64,000 nucleotides of DNA from an uncultured Gammaproteobacteria bacterium (GTDB taxonomy: Bacteria > Patescibacteriota > Patescibacteriia > Veblenbacterales > UBA10138). Both the position numbers and the translations under genes were made by a program. The notes beneath the pieces were generated by a model. It was not told where the DNA came from. It searched no databases and saw only the letters and a list, made by a program, of their open reading frames with translations. Positions 15,015 to 55,113 of the stretch are shown here, one piece after another. Within the stretch, counting starts at the first letter, position 1. Each line of letters begins with the position of its first letter. Location of the stretch: contig CAYGDX010000002.1 of assembly GCA_964348825.1 (NCBI GenBank), positions 195,013-259,012 of the forward strand. The letters run 5' to 3'.

Positions 15015-15175
15015 TGCCGCCCTGTCGTAGGGCTTGTACAGAGCGGAAGTCAAACGAGCTTTAGGTCAGGCCGTGTTTGTGGTCGTTTAGCATAGGCCTG
15101 ACCAACTCGTTTGACGAGCACTGTTCAAATATGGAGACCGAGGCGGCGATTTTGTGTTACTTTATAAAAAGTAAC
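15015..15175 (+). repeat. Structured GC-rich dispersed repeat, copy 1 (orientation A): ~140-nt long-hairpin core plus a terminal palindrome gttactttataaaaagtaac
   Basis: Copies also at 34621-34780, 39138-39297 (reverse) and 54951-55113 (reverse). Inner stem is gaagtcaaacgagc / gctcgtttgac. Confidence 0.8.
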
Positions 15176-15199
15176 AAAATAAAAAATAATTATAAATTT

Positions 15200-15484
15200 T
15201 TATATTTTTATTTTCTCCAAAACCCACTTCACTCCCGGCAGTTCAAACTCTTCTCCTTGCCAAACCGCTACTAAGCCCCGCAAAGAAAATAAAAAACTAA
15301 TCACCCACCCTACCAAGGGTAATAGCAACATTACAATCAAGCCACCCCCAAGAACCACCAAACCTTGCCGAGTATGAAATTTTACAAATTCACTATCGCG
15401 TTTAAATAAAAATGGAATAAAAACCGCGAGCCAAAGATAGGCCAAAGCAGACCAGAGTTTTTCATTATCGGATATTTTGTGCAT
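15200..15484 (-). CDS. Small membrane protein (about 3 TM helices)
   Basis: 94 aa with hydrophobic stretches LWSALAYLWLAVFIPFLF and GLVVLGGGLIVMLLLPLVGWVISFLF. Confidence 0.5.
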   Translation of the reverse strand: MHKISDNEKLWSALAYLWLAVFIPFLFKRDSEFVKFHTRQGLVVLGGGLIVMLLLPLVGWVISFLFSLRGLVAVWQGEEFELPGVKWVLEKIKI

Positions 15485-15549
15485 AATAATATTATTCCTT
15501 AAACTTATACGCCTCCATAACCCTAAATTTAAATATTTAAAAAAATTTT

Positions 15550-15600
15550 AGATTTTAGTTATTGGAATTTATTTCGGATTTCGGATTTAGAGTTTCGTAT
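15550..15600. repeat. Heptamer repeat tract (TCGGATT family)
   Basis: agattttagttattggaatttatttcggatttcggatttag. Confidence 0.7.
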
Positions 15601-16091
15601 TTTTGAGAGATTGCTTCGTCGTTCGCCTTACTCACTCCTCGCAATGACATTACACTATTATTCTTTCCAAATACTCCCGCTGATTTAAAAAACCACACTG
15701 TAATTATACTTACCACCGAAGCAAGTAACGCGCTAAGAATTGGTTCAGTTATTAAATTAAAGGCCAACCACACATACCAAAAACGAATTAGTGACCAAAT
15801 GGCCGAAACAAATCCTGCTCCAGCCCCCACGAGCGCGGCTACGAGCATTAACTCGCGCCAATTTAATTTAGCTATCACACCAAGCTTCCAACCCACATAA
15901 CAAGCCATCGCGATTTGTAAAAATAAAACTATCGGTGCGGCTACACTTAAATAACTCAACTGTAACCAAAAACTAATCAAAAACAAAAATGATAAAACTG
16001 CCGACAAAATCACAAAGGGTCGCGCCGCCGCTTCAATGTAAAACCGCACGGTTTGATCAAAAATCAAAATTGGTTGATTAGTATAAGCCAC
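15555..16091 (-). CDS. Membrane protein (multi-TM). Its C-terminal tail is encoded by a heptamer-repeat tract plus a 45-nt conserved motif.
   Basis: 178 aa. C-terminus ...ETLNPKSEINSNN is read from the ggatttcggattt repeats. Confidence 0.5.
   Translation of the reverse strand: MAYTNQPILIFDQTVRFYIEAAARPFVILSAVLSFLFLISFWLQLSYLSVAAPIVLFLQIAMACYVGWKLGVIAKLNWRELMLVAALVGAGAGFVSAIWSLIRFWYVWLAFNLITEPILSALLASVVSIITVWFFKSAGVFGKNNSVMSLRGVSKANDEAISQKYETLNPKSEINSNN
15605..15649. repeat. 45-nt conserved motif gagagattgcttcgtcgttcgccttactcactcctcgcaatgaca; second copy at 59309-59353
   Basis: 41/45 identity with 59309-59353. Both copies immediately follow a heptamer tract. Confidence 0.7.
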
Positions 16092-16183
16092 TACTTAATT
16101 ATAGATTAAAATTAACCCAAAAACAAACTGCTTTGCGTTAAACAAAGCAGTTGTTAGTTGTCAGTTATTTGTTGTCGGCTAAA

Positions 16184-17935
<1,752 letters not shown>

Positions 17936-17943
17936 TTTTTAAA

Positions 17944-18240
17944 CTATTCAACAATCGCAATAACATCTGACAATTGTAGTGTTCCAAACTCCTCTTCATC
18001 TAACTTAAACTCATCTAATGCGTATTTTTTAAATAAAATCTTGTTACCAACTGCTACTTCCATCGGAGCACGGGTGCCATTATCTAAAAGTTTGCCCGGA
18101 CCAACTGCTATCACCTCACCAGTTTCTTGCTTTTCTTTATCGACTGTATCAGGTAATACAATACCGCTCTTCGTAACTTTATCTTCCTTTGAAACTTTGA
18201 CCACCAAGTGATCACCCAAAGGTTTGAGTTTTAAGTTCAT
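17944..18240 (-). CDS. groS: Co-chaperonin GroES
   Basis: 98 aa, MNLKLKPLGDHLVVKV...GIVLPD... Confidence 0.9.
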   Translation of the reverse strand: MNLKLKPLGDHLVVKVSKEDKVTKSGIVLPDTVDKEKQETGEVIAVGPGKLLDNGTRAPMEVAVGNKILFKKYALDEFKLDEEEFGTLQLSDVIAIVE

Positions 18241-18265
18241 AATATATTTGCTTAATGATTAACAA

Positions 18266-18292
18266 TTAGCACTCTATATTATAGAGTGCTAA
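18266..18292. promoter_or_regulatory. CIRCE operator (HrcA binding site) upstream of groES-groEL
   Basis: ttagcactc-tatattata-gagtgctaa is a perfect match to the TTAGCACTC-N9-GAGTGCTAA consensus. Confidence 0.85.
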
Positions 18293-18320
18293 CAGTATTT
18301 TAGCAAGTGGGGAGAGGTTG

Positions 18321-19919
18321 TCAAGAGATATTGATCTTTGTATCTGACTCTAAGTTTACTAGAGCTAAAATTAACCAAAATAACATAAACATACTAGGGA
18401 TTGTCCACCAGTAGTGGTCAAACATAGCCGTTATTATTATAGCCACCAGCCAATAGCTACTAGTTACTTGCGTATTACTAAAAGTGACGAAGATCCAATG
18501 GCGAAGAACCAACGACCTAATACCTATCCACAACAACCAAATAAATATAATCAACCCCACAATCCCCAACTCGGTAAAGACTAATAAAAACATATTATGT
18601 ACTGGTTGATAAAAACGCGGGGAAAGATTAGGTTGAATTTTTTGTAACTCCACTGTGTAATTATCCATACCTGTGCCACGCCACCACACGCGCGCTAAAA
18701 TACTTTGACTATCTTTTACGCTTCCCACTCGCTCTTCAACCGATTGTTGCTCCAAACGACCACCACCAAAAATTCTGGTTTGTACGAGTGGATAATAAAC
18801 TGCGGATAGAATAATAAATACTGATGTTGTAATGATAAGTACATTACGCCATCTACTGCTGTCATTCCCGCGCCATTCGGCCTCGAGCTCATGGCCGAGA
18901 GGAAGGCGGGAATCCAGAAACAAAAATGAATCAGCTTTTTGAGTTTCTATTTGTTTCTGGATCCCGGATCCTCGTCCGGGATGACACCTGCTTTGCCACC
19001 ACCAAATTATTAAACTCACACCTAAAGCCAACCACGCCCCACGGGAAAAAGTAAAAAATAAACCAGCAAGTTGAATTATATACAGTGAGAATAAAATTAT
19101 TTTTTTTAAATTCGAATATCGAAATTCGAAATTCGAAAATTTTTGGTCATTGGGATTTATTTCGGATTTCGGATTTCGGATTTCGGATTTTTCTATGAAA
19201 TATAACCATATCGTTGCTAAACATGTAACCACTAGCAATCCCCCCAGCACATTGGGGTGCACTTGCCCACCATAAGCTCGTAACCAATTTTCACCACCTG
19301 ATAAAATAACTGAAGTGCCAGCTTGGGTTAATGAATGCGCCGCTACACCCAACCATTTATTCGCAAAAGTTGATTGGGTAAAAAATTGTACAATTCCCCA
19401 TAATGCTTGAATTGCTCCCGCCAGCGTGAGTGACCAAAAGATACCTAACAACTTTGGTTTAATAGTTTTAATTAACAACCACAATAAACCGCCTTCTAAT
19501 AATCTTGCATTCCACACCGCGGCCAGCACTTTGTCGCTTGACCAAATAATAGATAAAAATGATAAACACAGTAAAACTAAATAAATAATTTTGAAATTTG
19601 AGATTTGGGAATTATTTAGGATTTCGGATTTCGGATTTCGGATTTTTAAATCCTTAATCTCCCGCCAAATCATCGGCCACGACACTATTATCAATAATAA
19701 AAATATTATATCCCAACTATACAATGAGATCCTTCCATATTCCCAAATTCTCTCGACTCCGCTCGGGACCTGCGGCCGCCAAATATGTAGATCGCGAACA
19801 ATCCACCTCGTTTGCCAAGGGAGGAGAAAAATGAATAGATAAAATAACCAAACTAGTATTTTAAGCCAAGTTAATGTCATAACTATATTATGTGCTAGTG
19901 AGTCATATTTTACAAACAA
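18321..19919 (-). CDS. O-antigen ligase/polymerase-like polytopic membrane protein (Wzy_C-like), carrying three in-frame repeat insertions
   Basis: Many TM helices and FTFSRGAWLALGVSLIIWWW in a periplasmic loop. Two EIRNPKSEI segments are encoded by TCGGATT tracts. One GC-rich palindromic insert lies at 18860-18985. Confidence 0.5.
   Translation of the reverse strand: MFVKYDSLAHNIVMTLTWLKILVWLFYLFIFLLPWQTRWIVRDLHIWRPQVPSGVERIWEYGRISLYSWDIIFLLLIIVSWPMIWREIKDLKIRNPKSEILNNSQISNFKIIYLVLLCLSFLSIIWSSDKVLAAVWNARLLEGGLLWLLIKTIKPKLLGIFWSLTLAGAIQALWGIVQFFTQSTFANKWLGVAAHSLTQAGTSVILSGGENWLRAYGGQVHPNVLGGLLVVTCLATIWLYFIEKSEIRNPKSEINPNDQKFSNFEFRYSNLKKIILFSLYIIQLAGLFFTFSRGAWLALGVSLIIWWWQSRCHPGRGSGIQKQIETQKADSFLFLDSRLPLGHELEAEWRGNDSSRWRNVLIITTSVFIILSAVYYPLVQTRIFGGGRLEQQSVEERVGSVKDSQSILARVWWRGTGMDNYTVELQKIQPNLSPRFYQPVHNMFLLVFTELGIVGLIIFIWLLWIGIRSLVLRHWIFVTFSNTQVTSSYWLVAIIITAMFDHYWWTIPSMFMLFWLILALVNLESDTKINIS
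19101..19190. repeat. Heptamer-repeat element forming a long imperfect palindrome (cgaaattcgaaattcgaaa ... tttcggatttcggatttcgg). It lies inside the CDS in-frame.
   Basis: Sequence seen directly; translates to FEIRNPKSEINPNDQKFSNFEFRYSN. Confidence 0.7.
19592..19652. repeat. Heptamer-repeat tract (TCGGATT x3-4) inside the CDS in-frame
   Basis: ttatttaggatttcggatttcggatttcggatttttaaatcc translates to KDLKIRNPKSEILNNSQIS. Confidence 0.7.
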
Positions 19920-19981
19920 AACCGCTCTAAATTAGAGCGGTTTTTTGTATACAATACAAAATTCTACTTATTGCTTACTAA

Positions 19982-22876
19982 CTACAAAACCTTCCTCAAC
20001 CACTGCCCGGTATAACTGCATTTCACTTTGGCTACTTCGCGTGGTGTGCCGCAAGCTACAATCTCGCCACCCTTATCGCCGCCTTCTGGTCCAAGGTCAA
20101 TAATCCAATCGGCACATTTTATAACATCTAAATTATGTTCAATCACCAGCACAGTATTCCCCCGCTCCACCAGTTCATTGAGAACCTGGAGTAGCCGCTT
20201 TACATCTTCAAAATGAAGTCCAGTCGTTGGTTCATCTAAAATATAAAGTGTGCGACCAGTGGAGCGACGTGAAAGTTCAGTCGCTAATTTTATTCTTTGT
20301 GCTTCACCACCCGAAAGTGTAGTAGCACTTTGACCTAAATGAATGTAACCTAAGCCCACCTCACAAAGCACTTTTAATTTATCGCGCACTTGCGGCACAT
20401 TTTCAAAAAATGTGGCGGCCTCTTCAGCTGTCATTTGCAAAACATCAGAAATATTTTTTCCCTTATAATGAATTTCCAGCGCTTGACTATTGTAACGCTT
20501 ACCATGACACTCTTCACATTCTACATAAACGTCAGGCAAGAAATGCATTTCAATCCGCACCAAACCATCACCTTCGCAGGCCTCACAACGCCCACCTTTT
20601 ACATTGAATGAAAATTTACCCGGATCATAGCCGCGAATTTTGGCTTCGGGTAACTGCGAAAATAAATCACGAATTGGTGTGAATACGCCAGTGTAAGTAG
20701 CAGGGTTTGAGCGTGGCGTGCGACCAATAGGACTTTGGTCAATATCTATTACTTTATCAATATGCTCTAATCCCTTTATTTGCTTATGCTTACCCGGCAA
20801 TTCTTTAGCATTATAAAAATGTTGGGCCAATGCTTTCGCTAAAATTTCAGTCATTAAAGTAGATTTGCCCGAGCCCGAAACACCAGTAATACAAACTAGC
20901 TTCCCTAAAGGAATTTCTACTTTAATATTTTTTAAATTAAATTCTGAAGCGCCTTCAATTATTAATTGTTTGCCATTGCCAGTATGAAATTTACTGGGTG
21001 CGGCAATTTGCAAACGCTTAGATAAATATTGACCAGTTAATGATTTTTTATCACGCGCTACTTCTTGCGGCGTGCCTTGCGCTACTACTTCACCACCGTG
21101 TTTACCCGCCCCTGGTCCAATATCAATCAATTGATCAGCCGCCATCATTGTTTCTTCGTCATGCTCCACTACTAATACTGTATTTCCTAAATCACGCAAA
21201 CGTTTAAGCGTGGCGATTAATTTATCATTATCGCGTTGGTGTAAACCAATTGATGGTTCATCTAAAATATAAATCACACCCACCAAGCTTGAACCAATTT
21301 GAGTAGCCAGTCGTATGCGCTGAGCTTCACCGCCCGAAAGTGTGGCGGCCGCGCGATCCAAAGTTAAGTATTCCAAACCCACATCAGCCAAAAAAAGTAG
21401 GCGCGCTTTTATTTCTTTAATTACCTGACGCACAATTTTTAATGCTCGTTCGCTTAATTTATTTTCTAAAATATTAAAAAACTCCACGGCAACACTCACC
21501 GACATTTTAGCCACATCAGAAATACTTTTATCTAAGAGTGTTACCCCAAGCACTTCGGGCTTCAAACGCTTACCATTGCACTCTGGGCAAGGCCACACGC
21601 GCATATAACGCTCAATTTCACTGCGCATATAGTCGGATTCGGTTTCTTTATAACGGCGCATTAAATTCGGAATCACGCCTTCAAAAGTAGTAAAAAACTC
21701 ACGCACTTTACCGCCCATGCTACTCCCCGCATTCACATTATAATTTTGCTCGCCCGTACCATAAAAAACAATTTTCAAATCTTCGCGTGATAATTTACTC
21801 ACTGGCTCAAGTAAAGAAAATTTATGTTCCCGCGCCACCGCTTCTAAAATTCGATAGTACCAAGTTTGATTAGCGGAAGTGCGCGACCACGGCCGAACTG
21901 CCCCTTCAGCAATTGATAATCTTTTGTTGGGAATTACTAAATCAGGATCGACTTCTAATTTAGTACCAAGGCCGGTGCAAGTGGAACACGCGCCATGCGG
22001 TGAATTAAAAGAAAAACTACGCGGCTCAATTGAGGGCAAATCAAGCGAACAATGTGGACAAGCCAAATGTTCACTAAATAATAATTCATTATTATTGCTT
22101 GATGACTTAACACGCACAATGCCGTCACCCAAATCTAAAGCCGTTACTAAAGAATCATGTAGTCGTGTAATATCATCTTTATCGGTTGATACAATTACTT
22201 TATCTACTGTAACTTCAATGGTGTGGCGTTTTTGTTTATCTATTTTTTTATCTTCTACTTCATCCATACCCATATCATAACCATCAAATCGTAATTGGGT
22301 GTAACCAGCTTTTTTAAGCTCAGCTAAAATACCGCGGTGCTCACCTTTTTGATCGCGCACTACTGGCGCAAGTAAAATAAGCTCTGTGCCAAGTGGCGAA
22401 GTTTGCAAGCGTTTAACAATTTGATCCACTGATTGCTTAGCTACTTCACGACCACACTTGGGACAATGCGGCACACCTACCCGCGCAAAAAGTAAACGTA
22501 AATAATCATAAATTTCGGTAACTGTACCAACCGTGGAGCGAGGATTATGTGAAGTGGAACGTTGATCAATGGAAATAGCTGGGCTTAACCCATCAATTTG
22601 ATCAACATCGGGCTTATCCATTAAACCTAAAAATTGCCGCGCATAAGAAGATAGTGATTCAATATACCGACGTTGACCTTCGGCATAAATCGTATCAAAA
22701 GCCAGTGAAGATTTACCCGAGCCAGAGAGGCCAGTAAGCACCACCAACTTATTGCGTGGAATATCAAGCGAAATATTTTTCAAATTATGCACCCGTGCGC
22801 CACGAATGGTAATAAAATCAACTCGCGATACGGCACGAGCTGATGACTGAATATTTTTTGAAGAATTTTTTGACAT
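19982..22876 (-). CDS. uvrA: Excinuclease ABC subunit A (UvrA)
   Basis: Two ABC modules ([14 protein letters not shown] and [10 protein letters not shown]) with LSGGEAQRI signature motifs and zinc-finger cysteines. The start is most likely the internal MSKNSSK (22876); the track ORF is over-extended to 22945. Confidence 0.9.
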
Positions 22877-23042
22877 AAAAATTAACAAATATTGGTGAAT
22901 GCGCAAAAGTGGGTTCATTATATACCATCTGTCAAGTATGGTCAAGGGATAAAATAAAAAACCCTACAAGCTTAGCTTAAGGGTTATAAAAATACAATTA
23001 ACTCTATGTAAAAAATTGATTAGTCGATACAAAGTCGCTTAA

Positions 23043-31168: not shown

Positions 31169-31255
31169 GGGCGAGTGGCGGAACTGGCATACGCGCTAGC
31201 TTCAGGTGCTAGTGCCCGCAAGGGATTGAGGGTTCAACTCCCTCCTCGCCCACCA
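31169..31255 (+). tRNA. tRNA-Leu (anticodon CAG), 87 nt with a long variable arm and an encoded CCA
   Basis: GGGCGAGTGGCGGAACTGGCATACGCGCTAGCTTCAGGTGCTAGTGCCCGCAAGGGATTGAGGGTTCAACTCCCTCCTCGCCCACCA. Close to the canonical bacterial tRNA-Leu(CAG). Confidence 0.85.
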
Positions 31256-31524
31256 AGACAAAGGTTCGCTTGTCCGCCGCAGCTCTCGCCGTCGCGTAGC
31301 CGCTATGGCGGAGCACGGTTAGCGAAGGCGGAAGTCCCTCCTTCGGCACCACTTAAAAGACGACGGGTTCAACCTGCGCCCCGTAGATCTGCTTCAGCAG
31401 ATTCTACTGGGGTCCCTCCTCGCCCAAATAAAAAATTTAAAATCACTAAAACGCTTAAACACTAAAACATTTTTTATTTTAATGTTCTAGTGATCTAATA
31501 TTCTAAATATAAAACTACTAACTA

Positions 31525-33414: not shown

Positions 33415-33493
33415 AGAATTTAGAATATAGAAGTTAGAATCTAGAATTAGTACTATACTTATCTAACTTCAAAATTCTAGCTTCTAGATTCGG
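33413..33493. repeat. Heptamer-based (TTAGAAT family) long imperfect palindrome in the rnj-trpS spacer
   Basis: agaatttagaatatagaagttagaatctagaattag ... ctaacttcaaaattctagcttctagattc. Confidence 0.6.
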
Positions 33494-34587: not shown

Positions 34588-34613
34588 AAAAAGCGACAAA
34601 ATTGTCGCTTTTT
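34588..34613 (+). terminator. Rho-independent terminator of trpS
   Basis: aaaaagcgacaaaattgtcgcttttt. Confidence 0.7.
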
Positions 34614-34620
34614 AAATTAC

Positions 34621-34780
34621 TGCCGCCCTGTCGTAGGGTTTGTACAGAGCGGAAGTCAAACGAGCTTTAGGTTCGGGCGTGCTGTGGTAGTTGTGCATAG
34701 CCCGAATCAGCTCGTTTGACGAGCACTGTTCAAACCCGGAGACCGAGGCGGCGATTTTATGTTACTTTATAAAAAGTAAC
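34621..34780 (+). repeat. Structured GC-rich dispersed repeat, copy 2 (orientation A)
   Basis: tgccgccctgtcgtagggtttgtacagagcggaagtcaaacgagc...gttactttataaaaagtaac. Shows a compensatory stem change relative to copy 1: ttcgggc/gcccgaa here against tcaggcc/ggcctga there. Confidence 0.8.
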
Positions 34781-34862
34781 ACGATTGATATTGACAAAAC
34801 CGCCAAAAATAATAAAATTAAACAAACACACACCATCAAAAAACAAAGATTGGAATTTAACA

Positions 34863-36466: not shown

Positions 36467-36602
36467 ACCCAGTATATCAACTTCACTACGCCAAATTAAA
36501 GCGTAGATTAGTTGCGTAGTTAATGATTAAATTACAAATTTTATAAAATAACATAGTTAAGTACTAATTTGGCAAAAGTTTAAGTGAAGTTGTATATCTG
36601 GG

Positions 36603-37931
36603 TCATATTTTGGATTTAATAAAATCTAATAATTCCTTTTGTTTAATTTGCAACATCGTTTGATCTTTAGCTTCCACTGTTATACGAAGTAATGGTTCAG
36701 TATTTGAGGGTCGCACATTGCACCACCAATCTGGATAACTCACAGTAACCCCATCCAACTCATCAATGGCGCCATCTTTATAATATTCTTTAATTTCAGT
36801 CAAAATTTCAGCTTGGTTTTTTACTTCTAAATTTACCTCTGGTGCTTTAGTATAAGGCGAATATTCTTTAACTAATTCTGACAGTGGTTTATCAGCGCGC
36901 GATAACATTTCTAAAACTAATAAGGCCGCAATCATACCTGAATCAGCACTATAATTATCACGGAATGAATAATGTGCCGAAATTTCCCCACCCATTATCG
37001 CACCTTGATGGAGTAGTGCCTGACTAACATTTACATAACCAACCGCGGTTCTAATTGGTTTACCACCCCACTTGGTTATAAATTCTGGCACAGCCCGTGA
37101 GCAAATTAAATTATAAGCAATGGCCGCGCCTGGCTCACGATGTAAAAATTCATTAGCGAGTAGTAAAAGTGTAACATCAGCCGGTACAAATCTACCTGTT
37201 TCATCAATAAAAAACACTCGATCAGTATCACCATCAAACATAATTCCAATATCAGCCTCTGATTCACGCACGGTTTGACTAATTTTATCAGCCGCATTGG
37301 GCGCTAAGGGATTAGACGGTCGATTGGGAAAAGAACCATCTAATTCAAACCAGAGTGGTTGATGTTTAAAAGGAAAATTTTCAAACAATAATGGGATAGC
37401 TTTTCCGGCCATACCATTGCCGGCATCCACTACTACTTTAAGTGGTTTTAAAATTTTAACATCTACAAACGATCGAACATGTTTTAAATAATCCGGCCAA
37501 ATATCAAACTTTGATACTTGCCCTAAATTATTCATAACTGGTAATTCAGCTTTTACTAAATCACGTAATTCTCGCCCGCGTACCCACTGCGTATGGCGAC
37601 GCATTACTTTAAAACCATTATACTCCGGCGGATTATGTGAAGCTGTTACCATAATACCAGCTAGATAATCAAATTTCCCCACTGCAAAATAAACTGCATC
37701 AATTGGTACTAAATCTATGTCGTGTACATTAACACCGCCCTTACACAAACCTAAAATTAAGGCCTGATGTAAAACCGGCGATGATAAACGCATATCTCTA
37801 CCTACTACCACCGTTCCTTCACCAACTAATTGTCCTATGGCGCGACCAACTGCTTCAGCCGCTTCGGCATTTAATTCACTGGGATAAATGCCGCGAATAT
37901 CATAGGCCTTAAAAATACTATCTGAATACAT
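36603..37931 (-). CDS. Phosphomannomutase/phosphoglucomutase (alpha-D-phosphohexomutase)
   Basis: Active site TASHNPPEYNGFK and metal-binding DGDTDR. Start at the internal MYSDSIFKAYDIRG. Confidence 0.8.
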   Translation of the reverse strand: MYSDSIFKAYDIRGIYPSELNAEAAEAVGRAIGQLVGEGTVVVGRDMRLSSPVLHQALILGLCKGGVNVHDIDLVPIDAVYFAVGKFDYLAGIMVTASHNPPEYNGFKVMRRHTQWVRGRELRDLVKAELPVMNNLGQVSKFDIWPDYLKHVRSFVDVKILKPLKVVVDAGNGMAGKAIPLLFENFPFKHQPLWFELDGSFPNRPSNPLAPNAADKISQTVRESEADIGIMFDGDTDRVFFIDETGRFVPADVTLLLLANEFLHREPGAAIAYNLICSRAVPEFITKWGGKPIRTAVGYVNVSQALLHQGAIMGGEISAHYSFRDNYSADSGMIAALLVLEMLSRADKPLSELVKEYSPYTKAPEVNLEVKNQAEILTEIKEYYKDGAIDELDGVTVSYPDWWCNVRPSNTEPLLRITVEAKDQTMLQIKQKELLDFIKSKI

Positions 37932-39057: not shown

Positions 39058-39137
39058 AAATTAATGTTATATTTAATGATTAATCAGCCATTATATTATA
39101 ACGGCTGAAGGGGAAAATAACAAATATTTCCTTACCG

Positions 39138-39297
39138 CTTCTCTAGAGAAGTGGTGCAAGAATCGCCGCCTCGGTCTCCGTATTTAAACAGTGCTCGTCA
39201 AACGAGCTGGCTCGGCCTATGCACAGCGGCCACAAACACGGCCTCGCCGGACGCTCGTTTGCCTTGCGCTCTGTACAAATACTACGACAGGACGGCA
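39138..39297 (-). repeat. Structured GC-rich dispersed repeat, copy 3 (reverse orientation), with a terminal palindrome cttctctagagaag
   Basis: Reverse complement aligns with copies 1 and 2 across the long-hairpin core. Confidence 0.75.
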
Positions 39298-39300
39298 AAA

Positions 39301-39335
39301 CTTTCGGATTTCGATATTCGGATTTAGGATTTGAG
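39301..39335. repeat. Heptamer tract (TCGGATT family) adjacent to repeat copy 3
   Basis: ctttcggatttcgatattcggatttaggatttgag. Confidence 0.6.
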
Positions 39336-40241
39336 TAATTTAATCCACTTAACCACTACCTTCACCAACTCCCCCTCCTTGCCATCAAACCCATGATTGG
39401 CTCCAGTAATTAATTGACCAGTAAAAAATTCAGTCGGAATTTGATTTTTAAAAATCTGCAAAATTTTAGCTGGTGGAAGATCGGCATATTGATCTTTCTC
39501 GCCAATTAATACTAACGTTGGTTTATTTAATTTTTTGACCCAAGTGAATTTACATTTTGATTGATAATAGGGAAACATATCTTCTACGCTATTTGAAGTA
39601 GCAATACTTAAAAATCTTTGGGCTGACCATAAAATACCTTTAAATAAATTCAAAGGTAACAATTCATCACCACGTTTTTGTGTGACCATTTTTTTAGCCA
39701 AATTTAAAGTACTTTGGTATTTCTGACCTAAAACTTTTTTAAATCCTGGTACATCACTAAGCGGCCCGAGTAATCCAACCCCAACAATCCCCTTACCGCC
39801 AGTAGTTTGTATATAATAAGCCACCTTGTTAGCGCCCGTGCTGTGACCACACAAAATAATTTTTTTATAACCCTGACCTTGCAAAAACCTTATACCGGCC
39901 TCAATATCAAAAATACAATCGGTAAATTTTTCATAAGCCGTACCGCCTAACTCACGCTGTTCTTTTTTAAGACCCTTTCTTAATCTCACCGCCACACCTG
40001 AACCACGATGCTCTAGTATTGCAAGCGACAATCCTTGTTTAATAAATTCTTCGGCCAACTTTTTTACCTTACTTGCCCGTGGCATAATGGAAAAAGAAAG
40101 CGCTCCCAACCACAAAACTACCGTACGACTTTTCCCCTGCGGTTCAAATAACATCCCACCTAAATTTAACTTATCGCGAGTTAATACTGAAAAAAGGTTA
40201 GTTTGCATAAACATCTTCTTAATTTTAACAAAAAATATCAA
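39324..40241 (-). CDS. Alpha/beta hydrolase fold protein
   Basis: Nucleophile elbow CGHSTGAN (GxSxG). 305 aa. Confidence 0.6.
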   Translation of the reverse strand: MIFFVKIKKMFMQTNLFSVLTRDKLNLGGMLFEPQGKSRTVVLWLGALSFSIMPRASKVKKLAEEFIKQGLSLAILEHRGSGVAVRLRKGLKKEQRELGGTAYEKFTDCIFDIEAGIRFLQGQGYKKIILCGHSTGANKVAYYIQTTGGKGIVGVGLLGPLSDVPGFKKVLGQKYQSTLNLAKKMVTQKRGDELLPLNLFKGILWSAQRFLSIATSNSVEDMFPYYQSKCKFTWVKKLNKPTLVLIGEKDQYADLPPAKILQIFKNQIPTEFFTGQLITGANHGFDGKEGELVKVVVKWIKLLKS

Positions 40242-46551: not shown

Positions 46552-46599
46552 AACGACTCCTATTTTATTAATTAATAACTTTTATAAGGATATACATTT

Positions 46600-47149: not shown

Positions 47150-47260
47150 GGAATGGTGTTTAATAAAATTACACAGCACTCCTCACCGCTTCAAGCGAGA
47201 GTTAAAAACTAAATTGTGATGATGATTAATTAATAAACTCATAAAATTGTTATTTTTCTT

Positions 47261-47287
47261 TGTATCAACGTGTTAACACATTGATAC
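47261..47287. promoter_or_regulatory. Palindromic operator-like site 2 (TGTATCAACGTGTTAACACATTGATAC)
   Basis: Differs from site 1 at one position; GTGTTAACAC core. Confidence 0.55.
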
Positions 47288-47320
47288 TGTTATAAAAATG
47301 ATTAAAATTAACTAATTAAA

Positions 47321-47620
47321 TTACTTTAGTAGCCCAAGTCGCGCGAGGACTAACTTGTATCCACCCATTCCCTGATTCAACCATTGGGCTACACGAGCTA
47401 CAGTAGTAGTGCTCATACCTAATTCTTTAGCAATTTCTCGGTAATCGCGGTCACGCGCCAGCATTTTTACAGCTTGAAAGCGATCTGACATATCTACCAA
47501 TTCATCAGGTGTGCACAAATCACGCATAAAACGCTTAATTTCGTCTTTGGTCTTCAATTTAAGCATAGCGGTAAATAATTCATCCGCCGCCGCACTATTC
47601 CACTTTTTAGCTTTTTTCAT
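47321..47620 (-). CDS. yerC: YerC/YecD family TrpR-like DNA-binding protein
   Basis: 99 aa. ...ELFTAMLKLKTKDEIKRFMRDLCTPDELVDMSDRFQAVKMLARDRDYREIAKELGMSTTTVARV... closely follows the YerC/YecD family pattern. Confidence 0.8.
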   Translation of the reverse strand: MKKAKKWNSAAADELFTAMLKLKTKDEIKRFMRDLCTPDELVDMSDRFQAVKMLARDRDYREIAKELGMSTTTVARVAQWLNQGMGGYKLVLARLGLLK

Positions 47621-47648
47621 ACAATTACAAATAAATCATTAAAATACT

Positions 47649-47677
47649 CTGTATCACTGTGTTAACACACTAACACA
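47649..47677. promoter_or_regulatory. Operator-like site 3 (CTGTATCACTGTGTTAACACACTAACACA) in the divergent yerC / glyA promoter region
   Basis: Left arm TGTATCA and core GTGTTAACAC are conserved; the right arm is diverged. Confidence 0.45.
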
Positions 47678-47782
47678 AGTTATTTTAACTGTCAAACTAT
47701 TACCTGTGGATAACTCAATTTATCCTTAAAAACACCACTAAAATGGACAAAACTACTAAAACACGCTAATATAAAAACACTT

Positions 47783-49066: not shown

Positions 49067-49072
49067 TAAATC

Positions 49073-49912
49073 ATGGCAATTTTAATCAACGGCCGGGCTT
49101 TGGCTGATACTCTACTACTAGAATTAAAAAATAAAATTAAAGAGCTATCATTTACTCCTACTTTAGGAGTTATTTTGATTGGTGATGACGAGGCCTCACA
49201 TTTATATGTAAACTTAAAAATCAAAGCAGCCGAAGAAGTTGGTATTAAAGTTGATAAGAAAATATTACCTAAAACTATAAGCGAAAATGAAGTGTTACAA
49301 ATTATTAATGACTTTAATTGTCGGATAGATATTAATGGTATTTTAATTCAATTACCACTACCTGATCCATTTGATGAAAATAAAATTATCAATGCCATGT
49401 CACCCGCCAAAGACGCTGATGGTTTTCATCCAACTAACTTAAAGTTACTAACTGAGAATAAACCCTACTTAATTCCCGGGCTCGTTGAAGGTATTATTAA
49501 ATTAATTGAACAACCCCAATTATCACTCCAAAATAAAACTGCTGTGCTGCTGGTAAATAGTGAAATTTTTGCGAATCCACTTAAAAAAATACTAAGTGAG
49601 CAAGGAATAATTTCTCAAGTCATTAATCAACCAAATTCTATTATTCTAAAAACAGCTGATATTATTGTATCAGCGCTTGGTCAACCTAATATAATAAAAA
49701 GTGATGACATAAAAGATGGCGCAATTGTAATAGATGTCGGCACAACTAAAGTTAATGGGCGTCTACAAGGCGATGTTGATGCTGATAGTTTAAATAATAG
49801 AAATATTTATTTAACACCAGTGCCGGGTGGAGTTGGGCCAATGACTGTGGCGATGCTACTTTGGAATGTTTATAATTTAACTGTTATCCAACATAAAATT
49901 ACCAATAAATAA
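49073..49912 (+). CDS. folD: Bifunctional methylenetetrahydrofolate dehydrogenase/cyclohydrolase
   Basis: 279 aa, FolD architecture. Immediately downstream of glyA. Confidence 0.85.
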   Translation: MAILINGRALADTLLLELKNKIKELSFTPTLGVILIGDDEASHLYVNLKIKAAEEVGIKVDKKILPKTISENEVLQIINDFNCRIDINGILIQLPLPDPFDENKIINAMSPAKDADGFHPTNLKLLTENKPYLIPGLVEGIIKLIEQPQLSLQNKTAVLLVNSEIFANPLKKILSEQGIISQVINQPNSIILKTADIIVSALGQPNIIKSDDIKDGAIVIDVGTTKVNGRLQGDVDADSLNNRNIYLTPVPGGVGPMTVAMLLWNVYNLTVIQHKITNK

Positions 49913-49925
49913 TAATTTATTTTCT

Positions 49926-49984
49926 CTGTGCCAATGTGTTAACCTAAGTACTACTAAGAGTACTGGGCACAGCACATTGGCACA
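49926..49984. terminator. Long hairpin between convergent folD and the riboflavin kinase gene; likely a bidirectional terminator
   Basis: ctgtgccaatgtg ... cacattggcaca stems with an internal agtact..agtact sub-palindrome. Contains the GTGTTAAC core. Confidence 0.5.
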
Positions 49985-49997
49985 ATAAACAAAAATA

Positions 49998-50369
49998 TCA
50001 CAAACCCAATATAATTTTGGTTTGTTTAATATCTTGCTCAATTTGTTTTTTTATATCTTCCAAATTAGTTGTGCGTATCACGTCGCGTAATTTTTGCACC
50101 ATTTCCACTTGTAAATTCTGTCCATATAGATCATCTGAAAAATCGAGTAAATAAACTTCTTGGCGTGGCTCGCCAGAAGCTTCTTGTTCTACACCAGATA
50201 CCAAAACTCCAGCATATTTTGTGTCGCCTAAAAAAACCCAAACTGCATAAATGCCAGTTTGGGCACGAAAGCTATCCTCAATTAATTTCAAATTAGCCGT
50301 AGGATAACCAATTTGTCTGCCCTCACCCTTACCCCGTATCACTCGGCCAGTTATTATTTCCTTAATCAT
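49998..50369 (-). CDS. Riboflavin kinase domain protein (monofunctional, no FAD synthetase domain)
   Basis: GRVIRGKGEGRQIGYPTANL ... pattern of the RibF C-terminal kinase domain. 123 aa. Confidence 0.65.
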   Translation of the reverse strand: MIKEIITGRVIRGKGEGRQIGYPTANLKLIEDSFRAQTGIYAVWVFLGDTKYAGVLVSGVEQEASGEPRQEVYLLDFSDDLYGQNLQVEMVQKLRDVIRTTNLEDIKKQIEQDIKQTKIILGL

Positions 50370-50994
50370 GGCGGCGCAAACTTAAATCATATTGAATATC
50401 TTCCAACTTTCGCAAATGTTGTTTAGCTTGATCAAATTTACTGCGCAAACTTCCAGTTAAATTCATAGCCGCAAGTTCCCCCACTGTTGCAGTTGCCACT
50501 TCTACTAAAATTTTGATTGTTTTTTTATCACCACCTGTCGCTTGCTTCACCGCATAACGTGCTAATTCTCCTAACAAATCAGAAATCGCTCCTAAATAAA
50601 CATCAGTTGGAATTTTATACCCCGTAACTGGCACGATTTTTTTAGTTTCTAAATAACTCACAAATAATTTAGCTTCCACATATTCTTCTAGCGCTGCTCG
50701 CCAACTGCCCAAGTATTCTATTTCCTCCACTTTTTTTAACACTGCCTTGCCATTTGTAAAAAATCCTTCTGATTTTTTAAGTAAAGTATTGGCTTCCACT
50801 AAATTATCGCGTTGCGCCGCAAAAATTGCCTGTTTAGCTAAAGCTTGAGCTTGATTGGCAAAATCAGATAATTGCCGCCTACCCGCCGCCGCTTTTTGAT
50901 AGGCCTTACCTAAATCATTTAAAAATTTTGTATTATTCATATGGTTAATATCACCAAGATACCACACTAACAACAAATTGCCAAATAAACTCAA
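50362..50994 (-). CDS. Hypothetical all-helical protein (translin-family-like?)
   Basis: 210-aa ORF overlapping the kinase gene by 8 nt; weak resemblance only. Confidence 0.35.
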   Translation of the reverse strand: MSLFGNLLLVWYLGDINHMNNTKFLNDLGKAYQKAAAGRRQLSDFANQAQALAKQAIFAAQRDNLVEANTLLKKSEGFFTNGKAVLKKVEEIEYLGSWRAALEEYVEAKLFVSYLETKKIVPVTGYKIPTDVYLGAISDLLGELARYAVKQATGGDKKTIKILVEVATATVGELAAMNLTGSLRSKFDQAKQHLRKLEDIQYDLSLRRHD

Positions 50995-51060
50995 AAAGAG
51001 GTATAATAAGATTGTTAAGTCAAAAGTAAAAACTTAAAACTATAAATAAAAAATTTTGAC

Positions 51061-51095
51061 TTTTGAATTTAGGATTTTGATATTCGGATTTAAAT
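51061..51095. repeat. Heptamer tract (GGATTT/TCGGATT family)
   Basis: ttttgaatttaggattttgatattcggatttaaat. Confidence 0.5.
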
Positions 51096-51098
51096 TTT

Positions 51099-51608
51099 AT
51101 GCCTCTCAACCTCAACCTCAATCCCCAAGCTGATACTGGCCAAGTAGAATTGCGCTGGAATTTTGCTGAACCACGCGCGCCTGAACGTGGGCAAGTGTGG
51201 TGGATTTTAATGAGTTTAGTCGGCGTAGGTTTAATTATTTATGCCGTTTTAACAGCCAGCTTTTTATTTGCCTTAATTATTGTACTTGGCGCCGCCATTT
51301 TAGTGCAAGAATCTCGTCGCCCACGGCGGCGGCTGGATTGCAAAATTACCAATACTGGTGTAGCAGTTGGAAAAAAATTCTGGAAATGGTCTGAACTACA
51401 TGAATTTTTTATTGTTTACCGCCCACCGGAAGTATCTAATTTATATATTGTACCAAATGCCCTGCACGATCCACGGGTAAAAGTGCCACTTGAAAAAACC
51501 AACCCGTTAAAAGTACGTGATATTTTAATTAAATATTTAAAAGAAAATTTGGAACGCGAAGATATTCCTACTTCCGAAGCCATTTCTAAACTACTAAAAC
51601 TACAGTAA
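51099..51608 (+). CDS. Hypothetical membrane protein (2 TM helices)
   Basis: 169 aa, hydrophobic VWWILMSLVGVGLIIYAVLTASFLFALIIVLGAAIL. Confidence 0.45.
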   Translation: MPLNLNLNPQADTGQVELRWNFAEPRAPERGQVWWILMSLVGVGLIIYAVLTASFLFALIIVLGAAILVQESRRPRRRLDCKITNTGVAVGKKFWKWSELHEFFIVYRPPEVSNLYIVPNALHDPRVKVPLEKTNPLKVRDILIKYLKENLEREDIPTSEAISKLLKLQ

Positions 51609-51687
51609 TGGACTTGCCAAATATAATAATATGGCGTATATTAATCTAGCCAACTTTGACTAGATTTTAAATTATTAAAATAGTTTT

Positions 51688-51738
51688 GACCTTTGACCTT
51701 TGACCTTTGACTTTTGACTTTTGACTTTTGACTTATTT
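51688..51738. repeat. Tandem heptamer array (TTGACCT x3, TTGACTT x3) immediately upstream of tRNA-Arg
   Basis: gacctttgacctttgacctttgacttttgacttttgacttttgacttattttg. Each unit contains the -35-like TTGAC. Confidence 0.8.
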
Positions 51739-51740
51739 TG

Positions 51741-51815
51741 GCCCCTGTCGTTTAATGGATAGGACGCAGGATTGCGGATCCTGCAATTGAGGTTCGATTC
51801 CTCACGGGGGCACCA
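51741..51815 (+). tRNA. tRNA-Arg (anticodon reads GCG; G37), 75 nt with an encoded CCA
   Basis: GCCCCTGTCGTTTAATGGATAGGACGCAGGATTGCGGATCCTGCAATTGAGGTTCGATTCCTCACGGGGGCACCA. Anticodon stem CAGGA/TCCTG, loop TTGCGGA. Confidence 0.75.
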
Positions 51816-51916
51816 CTAAAATTTTACTTGCTATGACAACCATATTGTTTGAATAAACATAAAAATAAAACAGCGAGACGCTCACTGTTTTATTTTTATA
51901 AAAGAATCATTAATAT

Positions 51917-52516
51917 ATGGAATTAAAAATTATTTTCGGTACAATTGCAGCAGCCCTTGCCCTATTCAGTTCATATTTATATATTCGAGATATTTTTCGA
52001 GGAAATACAAAACCCCACATGTACACTTGGCTTATTTGGTCCATTGTCACAACCATAGCTTTCTTTGGACAATGGGTTTCTGGTGGAGGCCCAGGGTCTT
52101 GGGCAACAGGAGTAGCTGCCATTGTAACTATTGGAACATTTTTCCTTTCCCTAAAAAGTAAATATGGCACTAAAGATATTACGAATTTCGATAAAATTTG
52201 CTTAGTGCTTGCAATTCTTTCAATTCTCCCTTGGTTGCTCACCAAAAGTGTCTTATGGTCAGTTCTACTTGCAACATTTATTGACCTTATTGCATTCTTT
52301 CCAACTATGCGTAAAACTTGGTCCTCTCCAAAAAGCGAATCATTGGGATCTATGTATGTGGATGCTGTGAAGCACGCACTATCTACATTTTCTATGGGCA
52401 CATATTCCTTAGTTACATTAATATACCCCCTCTCTGTTCTAGCAACAAAATTTATAATAATTGGAGAGATAATTTTTTTGAATAAATTTAAATCAGATAA
52501 TAGTAGTTCAATATGA
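51917..52516 (+). CDS. Hypothetical polytopic membrane protein (about 6 TM helices)
   Basis: 199 aa. Preferred over the overlapping antisense ORF 51910-52401 because of consistent hydrophobic helices. Confidence 0.45.
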   Translation: MELKIIFGTIAAALALFSSYLYIRDIFRGNTKPHMYTWLIWSIVTTIAFFGQWVSGGGPGSWATGVAAIVTIGTFFLSLKSKYGTKDITNFDKICLVLAILSILPWLLTKSVLWSVLLATFIDLIAFFPTMRKTWSSPKSESLGSMYVDAVKHALSTFSMGTYSLVTLIYPLSVLATKFIIIGEIIFLNKFKSDNSSSI

Positions 52517-52797
52517 AAAAAGCGTCTATTTTTATAATTGTAATTATTTTTTTGATACTTGGCGGATTGGTATTATATGGATATTTAAGTGGATATCTAG
52601 TTGGTTTTAATAATGGACGATTAGTTGTCCGTTATTATTTTTGCTCCGATGTTTGCCCGAAAAATGACCGGCAAAATTATGGTAGTTGGGTTGAAGCATA
52701 TTTTGGAGTACGTAGTAAAGAAAGTTGTGAAAAAATTGGTGGCCGTTCTATGATTGATCCGGCTTGGGGTGGTTTTATCGGTTGCGCTCCTAAATAA
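52513..52797 (+). CDS. Small membrane-anchored or secreted Cys-containing protein (94 aa)
   Basis: N-terminal TM/signal IFIIVIIFLILGGLVLYGY. Overlaps the upstream stop by 4 nt. Confidence 0.35.
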   Translation: MKKASIFIIVIIFLILGGLVLYGYLSGYLVGFNNGRLVVRYYFCSDVCPKNDRQNYGSWVEAYFGVRSKESCEKIGGRSMIDPAWGGFIGCAPK

Positions 52798-52885
52798 TTA
52801 AAATTTATAATTCTTATACATTACCCATTTTATACCAATCCATTTTGGACTGGTATTTTGTTTTAGAAAAAGAGATAATAAATAT

Positions 52886-54940
52886 ATGCTACATATCTCC
52901 GACAAACTTACCGCGATTACCGGCCTTGGCCTTCAAACCGCCAAACGACTAAATAAACTTGGCCTTATTACGATTCAAGATTTACTACTTCATTTTCCTG
53001 CCCGCTATGAAGATTTTTCTAAAACCATACCAATTGCACAAGTAAAACTAGGCGAACAAATTACTATTCAAGGTAAAATTCAAACCATTATCGCGCGCAC
53101 CAGCCGTACCCGACGCTTAACTATCACTGAAGCACTTATTTCTGATGCTTCTGGTAGCGTAAAGGCAGTTTGGTTTAATCAACCATACCTTACGCAATCA
53201 TTAGCCAGTGGACAAGAAATAATGCTAGCTGGAAAAATCACAGCTTCTAACTATGGTTGGCAAATTGAACAACCCAACTGGGAATTAGTTACTAAACAAA
53301 CCAATATCCACACCGGCCGTCTAGTGCCTTTTTACCCTTTAACCGCGGGGCTTACGCATTATTTTTTTCGCAAAATTATCGGACGAATTATAAATTTAGT
53401 TGATCAAATACCTGATTTAGTACCGCCTGAAATTAGACAAAATTTAAAAATACCACCACTTAGCATCGCTATAAAAAATTTACATTTCCCAACTAATCAA
53501 ACTGATTTAATTACAGCCCGCCGGCGTGTCGCCTTTGATGAACTATATTTCTTAAGTTTGGCTTCACGACTGGCACACTCACAAACCAATAACCTTAAAG
53601 CACCAACTATACCATTTTCCACCGCCACCCAAAAAATAGTGAGTGAACTACCTTGGCCACTTACACCTGATCAAAAAAAATCGGCTTGGGAAATTATTCA
53701 AGATTTAAATAAAGATAAACCAATGCACCGCTTACTCCAAGGCGAAGTGGGTAGTGGTAAAACTATTGTGGCTGGCCTTGCGGCTTTCAACGTGATTCAA
53801 GCTAACTTGCAAGTAGTAATTCTAGCCCCAACTGAAATACTAGCAGTACAACATTTTCACACTTTAACCAATTTGTTTGCCAATTGGCCAATAAAGTGTG
53901 CCTTGCTAACACGTGGTCATAAAACCACTAATTTTGAAACCAAATCAACCAAACTAAAAATACTTAATCAATTAAAAAATGGGGAAATAAATATTATTAT
54001 TGGCACACATGCACTACTATCCGACAAAATTAATTTTAATAAACTGGGCTTGGTGGTAATTGATGAGCAACACCGTTTTGGGGTGGTACAAAGGCAGTGG
54101 TTAACTAAAGATACTAATATTACACCTCATCTTTTATCACTCTCCGCCACACCAATTCCACGCTCACTGGCCCTAACAATTTTTGGTGATCTTAATATTT
54201 CAATAATAAAACAAATGCCTACTGGACGGCAACCAATTTCTACTTTAATTGTACCACCCCAAAAACGCAGTGGAGCATATAATTTTATTCGACAAGAAAT
54301 TAAGCTTGGTCACCGCGCTTTTATTATTTGTCCACTGGTAGAAGAATCGGATGCTTTAGGTGTACGTGCCGTAACAAGTGAGTATGAAAAATTATCACGT
54401 CAAATTTTTCCTGATATAAAAATTGGTTTACTCCATGGCCGCTTAAAAGCTAAAGCCAAAACCGAAATTATGGCTGAATTTAAAAATGGTACCAAACCAA
54501 TTTTAATCAGTACTTCAGTAGTGGAAGTGGGAGTAGATGTACCCGAGGCCACCATTATGATGATTGAGGGTGCTGAACGATTTGGTATTGCCCAACTCCA
54601 TCAATTTCGTGGCCGAGTAGGTAGATCTAATTTAAAAAGCTATTGCTTATTATTTACTGATACTCAATCAGAACATTCTCTAAAACGTTTACAAGCACTT
54701 ACTAAATATCAAAACGGTTTTGATTTAGCCGAATTTGATTTAAAAAAACGTGGGCCAGGTAATTTGCTAGGCGAAATGCAGTCGGGCTGGGGTAAATTAA
54801 AATTCGCTGAACTGGTAGATTTAAAACTTTTAGATACTGTGCGGAGTGCTACTACTTTAACACTTGGTTTGAATTCCACCCTCACCCGCTGGCCAGAATT
54901 AAAAAATAAAATTGGGGAATTTAATTTTCATCCGGAATAA
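52886..54940 (+). CDS. recG: ATP-dependent DNA helicase RecG
   Basis: N-terminal wedge/OB region, helicase motif I GEVGSGKT, DEQH box in VIDEQHRFG, and C-terminal helicase domain. 684 aa. Confidence 0.85.
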   Translation: MLHISDKLTAITGLGLQTAKRLNKLGLITIQDLLLHFPARYEDFSKTIPIAQVKLGEQITIQGKIQTIIARTSRTRRLTITEALISDASGSVKAVWFNQPYLTQSLASGQEIMLAGKITASNYGWQIEQPNWELVTKQTNIHTGRLVPFYPLTAGLTHYFFRKIIGRIINLVDQIPDLVPPEIRQNLKIPPLSIAIKNLHFPTNQTDLITARRRVAFDELYFLSLASRLAHSQTNNLKAPTIPFSTATQKIVSELPWPLTPDQKKSAWEIIQDLNKDKPMHRLLQGEVGSGKTIVAGLAAFNVIQANLQVVILAPTEILAVQHFHTLTNLFANWPIKCALLTRGHKTTNFETKSTKLKILNQLKNGEINIIIGTHALLSDKINFNKLGLVVIDEQHRFGVVQRQWLTKDTNITPHLLSLSATPIPRSLALTIFGDLNISIIKQMPTGRQPISTLIVPPQKRSGAYNFIRQEIKLGHRAFIICPLVEESDALGVRAVTSEYEKLSRQIFPDIKIGLLHGRLKAKAKTEIMAEFKNGTKPILISTSVVEVGVDVPEATIMMIEGAERFGIAQLHQFRGRVGRSNLKSYCLLFTDTQSEHSLKRLQALTKYQNGFDLAEFDLKKRGPGNLLGEMQSGWGKLKFAELVDLKLLDTVRSATTLTLGLNSTLTRWPELKNKIGEFNFHPE

Positions 54941-54950
54941 ATTATTTTTA

Positions 54951-55113
54951 CTACTTCTCTAGAGAAGTAGCGCAAGAGTCGCCGCCTCGGTCTTCGTATT
55001 TGAACAGTGCTCGTCGGACTCGTTGGCTCGGCCTATGCACAGCGGCCACAAACACGGCCTCGCCGGACACTCGTCCGACTTCCGCTCTGTACAAATACTA
55101 CGACAGGGCGGCA
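54951..55113 (-). repeat. Structured GC-rich dispersed repeat, copy 4 (reverse orientation), with terminal palindrome ctacttctctagagaagtag
   Basis: Aligns with copy 3. Inner stem shows a compensatory change: gtcggac/gtccgac here against gtcaaac/gtttgac in copy 1. Confidence 0.75.

Follow-up and report, generated by a model that had tools for sequence, protein, structure and literature searches.

ERIC/IRU elements of Enterobacteria and Vibrio are imperfect palindromes of about 127 bp that often lie within or beside transcription units, some of them with insertions at fixed sites. Rickettsia palindromic elements (RPEs) and the Correia elements of Neisseria are palindromic repeats, 100-150 bp long, that have multiplied in genomes of small size or of host-associated bacteria and give rise to stable hairpins in transcripts; RPEs are often inserted in frame into genes, and Correia elements end in 26-bp inverted repeats and are flanked by TA target duplications. 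REPINs, doublets of REP sequences that form hairpins, are mobilised by RAYT transposases, for example in Pseudomonas fluorescens SBW25, and compensatory changes within the hairpin have been reported for this mobile DNA (PMC3116915). Here we describe a hairpin-forming repeat found in a 64-kb stretch of a Patescibacteria genome (contig CAYGDX010000002.1, positions 195,013 to 259,012; hereafter the window). The repeat is a previously undescribed interspersed family, restricted to a lineage of two sister species of the candidate phyla radiation (CPR), and its 135-nt core folds into a single rod whose helices covary. On balance, we favour the view that the family is a mobile or recently mobile, non-coding and non-autonomous hairpin repeat of the general REPIN/ERIC/RPE/Correia kind. 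What is new is a cleanly defined repeat family in an under-studied phylum; the general kind, that of REPIN/ERIC/RPE-like hairpin repeats, is known. Although genomes of Patescibacteria/CPR are small and streamlined, several hairpin-repeat families take up the scarce intergenic space of this lineage. The 135-nt rod is the clearest of them and offers a well-defined, covariation-backed model of how hairpin repeats persist in reduced genomes.

Like REPINs, the repeat is extragenic, dispersed, non-coding and present in both orientations; as they do, it forms an extended hairpin of roughly 100 nt from one strand, in which the two ends are conserved and compensatory changes maintain pairing across a middle that is less so (PMC3116915), and its copies make up a sequence population common to related genomes. 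However, its arms do not look like short self-palindromic REPs of about 20-40 nt: by eye they are non-self-palindromic except for a 3-bp CCC/GGG stem in some variants, and GTAG, a 5' motif of REP ends, is found only at positions 13-16 of the 5' arm. It also differs from REPINs in its conserved apical loop and its extra AT-rich palindromic tail, no RAYT was seen in the window or in about 100 kb of sister-species loci, and there is no sequence similarity. The repeat resembles ERIC/IRU elements in size, in being an imperfect palindrome over its whole length, in its intergenic location, in copies more conserved than their flanks and in internal insertions, whereas its GC content is high for an AT-rich genome, its tail is modular, and it is confined to the two sister CPR species and gave no blastn match in 5,426 E. 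coli genomes (nor in phages or plasmids). Unlike RPEs, all copies are intergenic, and, in contrast to Correia elements, no target duplication was seen. Classical miniature inverted-repeat transposable elements, which DDE transposases mobilise, differ in that no target-site duplication was seen by eye at the 15 copies inspected here, and no parent insertion sequence was found in the window or the sister loci. Elements derived from IS200/IS605, which go in 3' of a fixed tetra- or pentanucleotide and have a strand bias that follows replication, differ in that no fixed 5'-flank motif common to the copies was seen by eye and in that the window copies are of mixed orientation (two on each strand; n = 4) within a uniform GC skew on one replichore. 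The same mixture led us to reject a replication-strand bias.

Known small RNA (sRNA) families in Rfam 15 likewise have a compact, covariation-supported fold and a sense strand marked by G·U pairs. However, no Rfam 15 family matched the repeat at gathering score in the scan that an earlier, sequence-only reading of this DNA had recommended; the window yielded only four tRNAs, and a permissive scan of the copy 1 region gave only chance-level matches, none aligned to the rod. An integron attC site was rejected on the arrangement of the copies, which lie 4-20 kb apart among housekeeping genes and in both orientations. Retron non-coding RNA, IS110 bridge RNA and TnpB omega-RNA were set aside on their architecture: the repeat is a single rod with no large guide loops and no adjacent reverse transcriptase or recombinase. 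Membership in a specific known family is not established, given that we saw no RAYT or parent insertion sequence in the window and sister loci, no target duplication, no REP palindromes in the arms and no homology to ERIC.

The repeat unit and its covarying rod

The sequence-only reading had proposed four GC-rich, structured, intergenic repeats, and indeed all four cores were found where it had placed them, each between genes and each at 55-61% GC against about 37% GC (34-40%) for the window. They lie at 15015-15149 (+ strand, copy 1; 140 bits, E 7e-32), 34621-34754 (+, copy 2; 152.5 bits), 39163-39297 (-, copy 3; 149.6 bits) and 54979-55113 (-, copy 4; 161.8 bits). The four copies align over about 175 nt with a mean column identity of 82%, and two conserved blocks (20 and 28 specified bases) each have four exact matches in the window and none in 100 dinucleotide shuffles of it. 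A covariance-model scan with filters off, likewise recommended, revealed no fifth or degraded copy in the window; "four-copy" is correct for the window and does not hold beyond it, as the sister genome carries at least 11.

The unit spans about 170-180 bp and consists of the 135-nt GC-rich core, a tail (type A or B) that holds a short AT-rich perfect palindrome, and, after either tail type, an A-rich end. The predicted outer stem GCCGCC/GGCGGC, long inner hairpin and two tail palindromes are all present, and the ends of the core (TGCCGCC… / …GGCGGCGA) form an imperfect inverted repeat of about 30 nt. The palindromic part of the tail is about 20 nt long and AT-rich: type A, GTTACTTTATAAAAAGTAAC, belongs to copies 1 and 2, and type B, CTTCTCTAGAGAAG, with variants written C/TACTTCTCTAGAGAAGC/TG/AG, to copies 3 and 4. 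In type-A copies UUUUGUGUU follows the GC-rich base of the rod. The tail of copy 1 (15150-15192, +) comprises a linker TTTTGT, the palindrome at 15156-15175 and then a conserved AAAATAAAAAATAAT; that of copy 2 (34755-34781, +) has its palindrome at 34761-34780. The tails of copies 3 (39132-39162, -) and 4 (54945-54978, -) carry CACTTCTCTAGAGAAGCGG at 39135-39153 and TACTTCTCTAGAGAAGTAG at 54951-54969, respectively. Throughout the window and the sister-locus sequence examined, tails occur solely joined to cores.

The core of copy 1 folds as a single rod of helices 1-5 and an apical loop, with a minimum free energy of -70.1 kcal/mol (z = -6.27, or -6.3 when rounded, against shuffles), and its opposite strand folds about equally (-69.1 kcal/mol). 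Covariation was assessed in 13 full-length copies, four from the window and nine from the sister species. Standard pairs fill 97.4% of the 585 pair cells, and 11 of the 45 pairs change on both sides, in 44 cells. The observed covariation score was reached by none of 500 shuffles, and sliding the 3' partners by 1-3 columns reduced pairing to 26-40%. The compensatory pairs quoted earlier are there, namely TCAGGCC/GGCCTGA against TTCGGGC/GCCCGAA and, between copies 1 and 4, GTCAAAC/GTTTGAC against GTCGGAC/GTCCGAC. Helix 4 occurs as AAACGAGC/GCUCGUUU, GGACGAGU/ACGAGUCC and UCCGCGAAU/AUGAGCGGA, helix 5 in five paired variants, and in helix 3 GG/CC switches to UA/UA. The basal part (about 34 nt per side, bulged bases included) and the apical loop are conserved in sequence, and the middle helices of the rod are variable but compensated.

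The claim that selection acts on secondary structure and not on a peptide has therefore become stronger with 13 copies: substitutions that break the stems at random, named beforehand as what would count against it, are not what the additional copies show. Compensatory change had also been called the hallmark of such selection. This is right as far as the structure goes; it is not proof of an RNA gene, and covariation cannot decide in favour of one, because compensatory change is reported for REPINs too (PMC3116915). The family thus carries a warning that covariation alone yields calls of "novel non-coding RNA" for mobile DNA hairpins.

The two strands can be told apart by their wobble pairs. 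G·U pairs exceed A·C mismatches 42 to 5 when cells are counted and about 11 to 4 when sites are. Two of the wobble pairs are fixed, or almost so, and a third is a U·G/C-G polymorphism. This excess identifies the strand written 5'-UGCCGCC… as the folding strand, which is compatible with folding either as RNA or as single-stranded DNA.

Distribution between two sister lineages

Among 185,579 species genomes of GTDB, the pattern CTGTCGTAGNNNTTGTACAGAGC was found at 11 sites, all of them in one Patescibacteria metagenome-assembled genome (MAG), JBBTZY01 'H52-bin160_1'. This MAG comes from the Hainich H52 assembly, since locus L031 is its contig JBBTZY010000009.1, and is of the same lineage as loci L019, L020 and L030, the last of which holds three copies in 21.8 kb. 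Sister-lineage genes are about 90% (87-92%) identical in nucleotides to those of the window. Two patterns gave zero matches in IMG/VR and zero in the JGI metagenomes. Three relatives with a 70-73% identical PGM have no copy in syntenic loci of 13-21 kb, where neighbours are rearranged. We found no relevant literature on repeats or structured RNAs of CPR/Patescibacteria.

The positions of the copies are not conserved. The site of copy 1, between the gene for a MamF-like 94-aa protein and ppsA, is syntenic in L019/L020 and has no copy there; other hairpins and simple repeats occupy the spacer, which is 247 nt in those loci. The converse is seen at bipA: in L030 a copy lies some 150 nt upstream of the gene, and L029, whose BipA is 99% identical to that of L030, has no copy there and three other small hairpins instead. 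The two orthologous sites that can be compared thus both differ between the sister lineages, and intergenic DNA of orthologous loci cannot be aligned between the window and the sister lineage. A search with a 638-aa neighbour protein found no ortholog from the window lineage. Taken together, the hairpin families of these spacers show that orthologous intergenic DNA in the lineage is replaced wholesale by different hairpin repeats. Several contigs end within the repeat (L002, L003, L011/L012), which explains assembly breaks in these MAGs.

Similarity among copies does not follow the genome they are in. The best match of every window copy stands at a non-orthologous locus of the sister species and is more similar to it than any other copy in the window: copy 4 is 98.5% identical to that of L008, and copy 1 91.9% identical to that of L005. 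Mean copy identity is the same within genomes as between them, at 84-85%, and the subfamilies are trans-specific. Helix variants and tail types assort independently among copies, as in L010, where a core like that of copy 4 is joined to an A tail; nested contiguous exchange between copies can explain this assortment.

Other small repeats have inserted into the rod. In sister-species copies a 20-nt GC mini-hairpin, CCTGCCTGCCGGTAGGCAGG, is nested after G31 (internal loop) and/or after A127 (bulge), and in L007 a hairpin of about 110 nt is inserted in the apical loop. All three insertion sites are unpaired in the model and the rod is left intact, which indicates that the structure is respected in vivo and that the genome hosts other small hairpin repeats. 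The mini-hairpin lies at L003 23-42, L006 6497-6516, L011 4475-4494 and 4364-4380, L004 3183-3203 and, free-standing, L009 1095-1116. It behaves like a repeat of REP size and is absent from the window.

Mobile hairpin, transcribed RNA or cis-acting element

The sequence-only reading had offered three identities, a structured sRNA, a REP-like repeat and a mobile hairpin. The evidence favours the two repeat readings over the sRNA, as the family is dispersed, lineage-restricted, missing from the relatives checked, unstable in position and divided into trans-specific subfamilies, has conserved ends and a compensated middle, and lacks, at all four window copies, a match to the sigma-70 promoter consensus just ahead of the element. 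We infer that the element moves or recently moved. A trans-acting factor, its gene lying at another place in the genome, may make new copies between genes, or may have done so until recently, and would recognise the element as a folded single strand. Protein recognition would fall to the basal arms and loop, which are conserved, and pairing would be all that is required of the middle helices. Copies would survive mainly just past stop codons, where promoters are spared, and a co-transcribed rod could leave a stable 3' hairpin on an mRNA in either orientation.

Several observations weigh against mobility. No target-site duplication, which the sequence-only reading had suggested looking for, was seen by eye at the junctions of the 15 copies, either at the borders of the core or at those of core plus tail, and neither was a conserved target motif. 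No transposase, RAYT (Y1_Tnp) or integrase is present among the proteins annotated or scanned with Pfam (most window genes, namely those outside about 44.5-55 kb, and 10 selected sister-locus proteins), and no autonomous parent insertion sequence with the same ends was found in the window or the approximately 100 kb of sister loci. No clean pair of empty and filled sites was recovered, the whole intergenic filler being different in both orthologous comparisons. Truncated or decayed copies are absent from the window, which is odd for selfish DNA unless deletion is fast. The whole unit of core plus tail is asymmetric, and the apical loop is conserved in sequence. Finally, a module of AAATCC runs stands upstream of about half of the copies and in some faces nothing else, as set out below.

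Some sister loci do encode enzymes of other kinds. L008 carries a 334-aa reverse transcriptase (RVT_1) beside a 296-aa protein without Pfam matches (873-1877 and 2817-3707), and L004 carries an Avd-like 23S_rRNA_IVP protein (1275-1718); these are probably parts of a diversity-generating retroelement. The nearest copies are 1.4-2.6 kb away from these genes, which have no established link to the repeat.

Multicopy, independently transcribed sRNA genes are a less likely explanation. Each unit would then comprise a promoter module of AAATCC runs, a 135-nt rod RNA and a tail hairpin as its 3' end, and the apical loop and basal bulges, both conserved, would serve as a binding site for a protein or a target. 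The strong covariation and the excess of G·U over A·C, which would define the sense strand, agree with this, as do the intactness of all window copies, the sequence conservation of loop and basal bulges, and an identity between copies of the two species (up to 98.5%) that exceeds that of the genes. The AAATCC association is the main evidence for transcription of the copies on their own. The module, about 45 nt and AAATCCTAAATCCGAATATCTAAATCCTAAATAAATCCAAAAT-like, is found upstream of 7 of 15 copies (copy 3 and six of the sister species), always in sense orientation and ending 9-54 nt from the core, with linkers that are non-homologous. For copy 3 it lies at 39320-39345 on the - strand (the end is approximate) and stops 22 nt short of the 5' end of the core. 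In L004, L007 and L030, three of the seven, only the element and then the 3' end of a convergent gene are downstream of the module, which fits a promoter-driven RNA gene. The module also lies 40-200 nt sense-upstream of several protein genes. No AAATCC run was noted in the printed downstream flanks of the copies; other configurations were not counted. If the association reflects real transcription, a CPR cell would contain this RNA in unusual abundance.

The same module speaks less clearly elsewhere, as AAATCC runs lie inside a Wzy_C-like open reading frame (ORF; 18321-19919), which has two of them, and directly after the stop of a RadA-like gene (55779-57164), so that the runs are not proven promoters; a promoter module, a slippage-prone satellite and a mobile element are all candidate roles. 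In the window, AAATCC runs are found at 15569-15588 (-), 19157-19190 (-), 19612-19645 (-), 55740-55773 (-), 58451-58513 and 59256-59268 (-), and in the sister loci at L004 4098-4131, L006 4228-4261 and L030 17910-17943. Independent transcription also sits poorly with copy positions that differ between sister species at about 90% identity, with the relatives that lack the family, and with the lack of a sigma-70 match just upstream of the window copies. Copy 2 begins 6 nt past the intrinsic terminator of trpS, the TrpRS gene (about 34589-34614), and a TTGACA-16-TAAAAT promoter match comes only after its tail, at 34791-34818. The tail hairpins have no U-tract on either strand, though the genome uses canonical terminators. 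One copy per roughly 16 kb, in a genome that is presumably of about 1 Mb, would to our knowledge be an unprecedented density for a family of sRNA genes, which further counts against such a reading.

Somewhat more doubtful still is a cis-acting element, of whatever origin, that serves the host and no longer moves, be it a stabiliser of 3' ends, a roadblock to exonucleases or an insulator or terminator between packed genes. The gene context of the copies, all of them intergenic in the window and the sister loci, is what commends it. Of the 13 assessable copies, nine point their tail at the stop of a convergent gene, with gaps of 5-112 nt; copy 1 leaves about 8 nt between its tail and the stop codon (15200) of the 94-aa gene, which is convergent with it, and copy 4 leaves 5 nt before the stop (54940) of convergent recG. 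Three further copies begin 23-58 nt past a co-directional stop (copy 3 starts 26 nt beyond that of a DUF1749 hydrolase gene), and one copy lies between divergent genes. Most copies thus come just past a stop codon, and their orientation relative to neighbouring genes is mixed, with no significant bias. The near-equal folding of both strands, the UUUUGUGUU that follows the rod base in type-A copies and the intactness of the window copies suit a barrier of this sort, and effects of this kind have been reported for ERIC, REP and Correia elements. Set against this, the same genes do without the element in the sister lineage and in relatives, copy 2 already stands behind a canonical terminator, a simple barrier has no need of conserved loop and basal-bulge sequences, and the G·U asymmetry favours one strand, yet 9 of 13 assessable copies would be read as the other strand from the neighbouring gene. 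Identity as a terminator was rejected, as no U-tract follows the tail or the rod on either strand.

It is quite improbable that the unit is a self-propagating structured-RNA gene, in which a promoter-associated AAATCC module would drive a 135-nt rod RNA, and this RNA would be the functional product as well as what is copied. Such a gene might be copied through an RNA or single-strand intermediate by an enzyme acting in trans, such as the reverse transcriptase of the sister genome. If true, this would be a bacterial counterpart of short interspersed elements, or a "mobile sRNA", present roughly once every 16 kb of a CPR genome that is itself ultra-small.

We give practically no credence to a small-protein gene family: an ORF with a similar translation (…SFDEHCSN.ETEAAIL…) is open in copies 1-4, yet it has no ATG and only TTG starts at differing positions, the 20-nt insertions shift its frame in L004 and L011m, its ETEAA segment is rewritten in L011p, its termination depends on whether the tail is of type A or B, and substitutions arrive as base-paired doubles. 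Because the frame is broken, the peptide gene was rejected, and the ORF is incidental, as the sequence-only reading had supposed.

Neighbouring genes and other intergenic repeats

The window is otherwise an ordinary Patescibacteria housekeeping stretch, with tsaD/E, rpoD, dnaG, ppsA, groES/EL, uvrA/C, trpS, murI, recG and genes for PGM, SHMT and the RadA-like protein. Its spacers and those of the sister loci contain further repeats. A second GC-rich hairpin repeat, GTCATTGCGAGGAGYGAGTAAGGCGARCGACGAAGCAATYTC, is 85-92% identical between the two species and is found in the window at 15600-15650 and 59300-59353 (-), and at L004 4050-4133, L005 1891-1940, L007 2234-2289, L019 10180-10218 and L029 1985-2011. 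Another hairpin family, GGATTCC(C/T)GCC…GC(G/A)GGAATGAC, recurs beside genes and element tails, at L029 148-172, L019 10368-10392 and L030 11800-11850 and downstream of the tails in L005, L007 and L010. Common to both species are long AT-rich palindromes with arms of 24-32 nt, built from simple repeats of the TTAGAAT/TCTAATT type (window 59183-59307 and 33415-33485; L019 10234-10307). The spacers downstream of recG in the relatives at about 70% identity (L017 1229-1577 and L013 1607-1881; 275-349 nt) are GC-rich and apparently structured, and share a motif, ATGAAACTAAACTCAAG; these spacers are unrelated to the 135-nt rod family.

Between murI and the PGM gene, the window has a 137-nt AT-rich element (36467-36603) with 21-nt inverted ends, ACCCAGTATATCAACTTCACT and AGTGAAGTTGTATATCTGGGT. 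The two genes overlap by 4 nt in the relatives L013, L015 and L017, so that the element looks like an insertion within an operon; a related copy lies at L004 2531-2630. At L030 9885-10003, a duplicate of the first 50 nt or so of the bipA ORF precedes the real start, from which it is set apart by a hairpin, CCCCGCAGTAGAAC…CACTACGGGG, and an AT-rich stretch. This looks like the insertion of a hairpin into the 5' coding end, which may have been repaired by duplication.

Downstream of tRNA-Leu (31169-31255), a GC-rich stretch of about 170 nt (31256-31430) ends in a second copy of the tRNA 3' end (TCCCTCCTCGCCCA, 31413-31426), which is preceded by a T-loop-like GGGTTCAAC and a hairpin, CCCCGTAGATCTGC…GCAGATTCTACTGGGG. 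Part of the stretch (31269-31332) is 95% identical to L003 1642-1705. An att-like duplication and a tRNA copy that has been disrupted are both candidates for the stretch.

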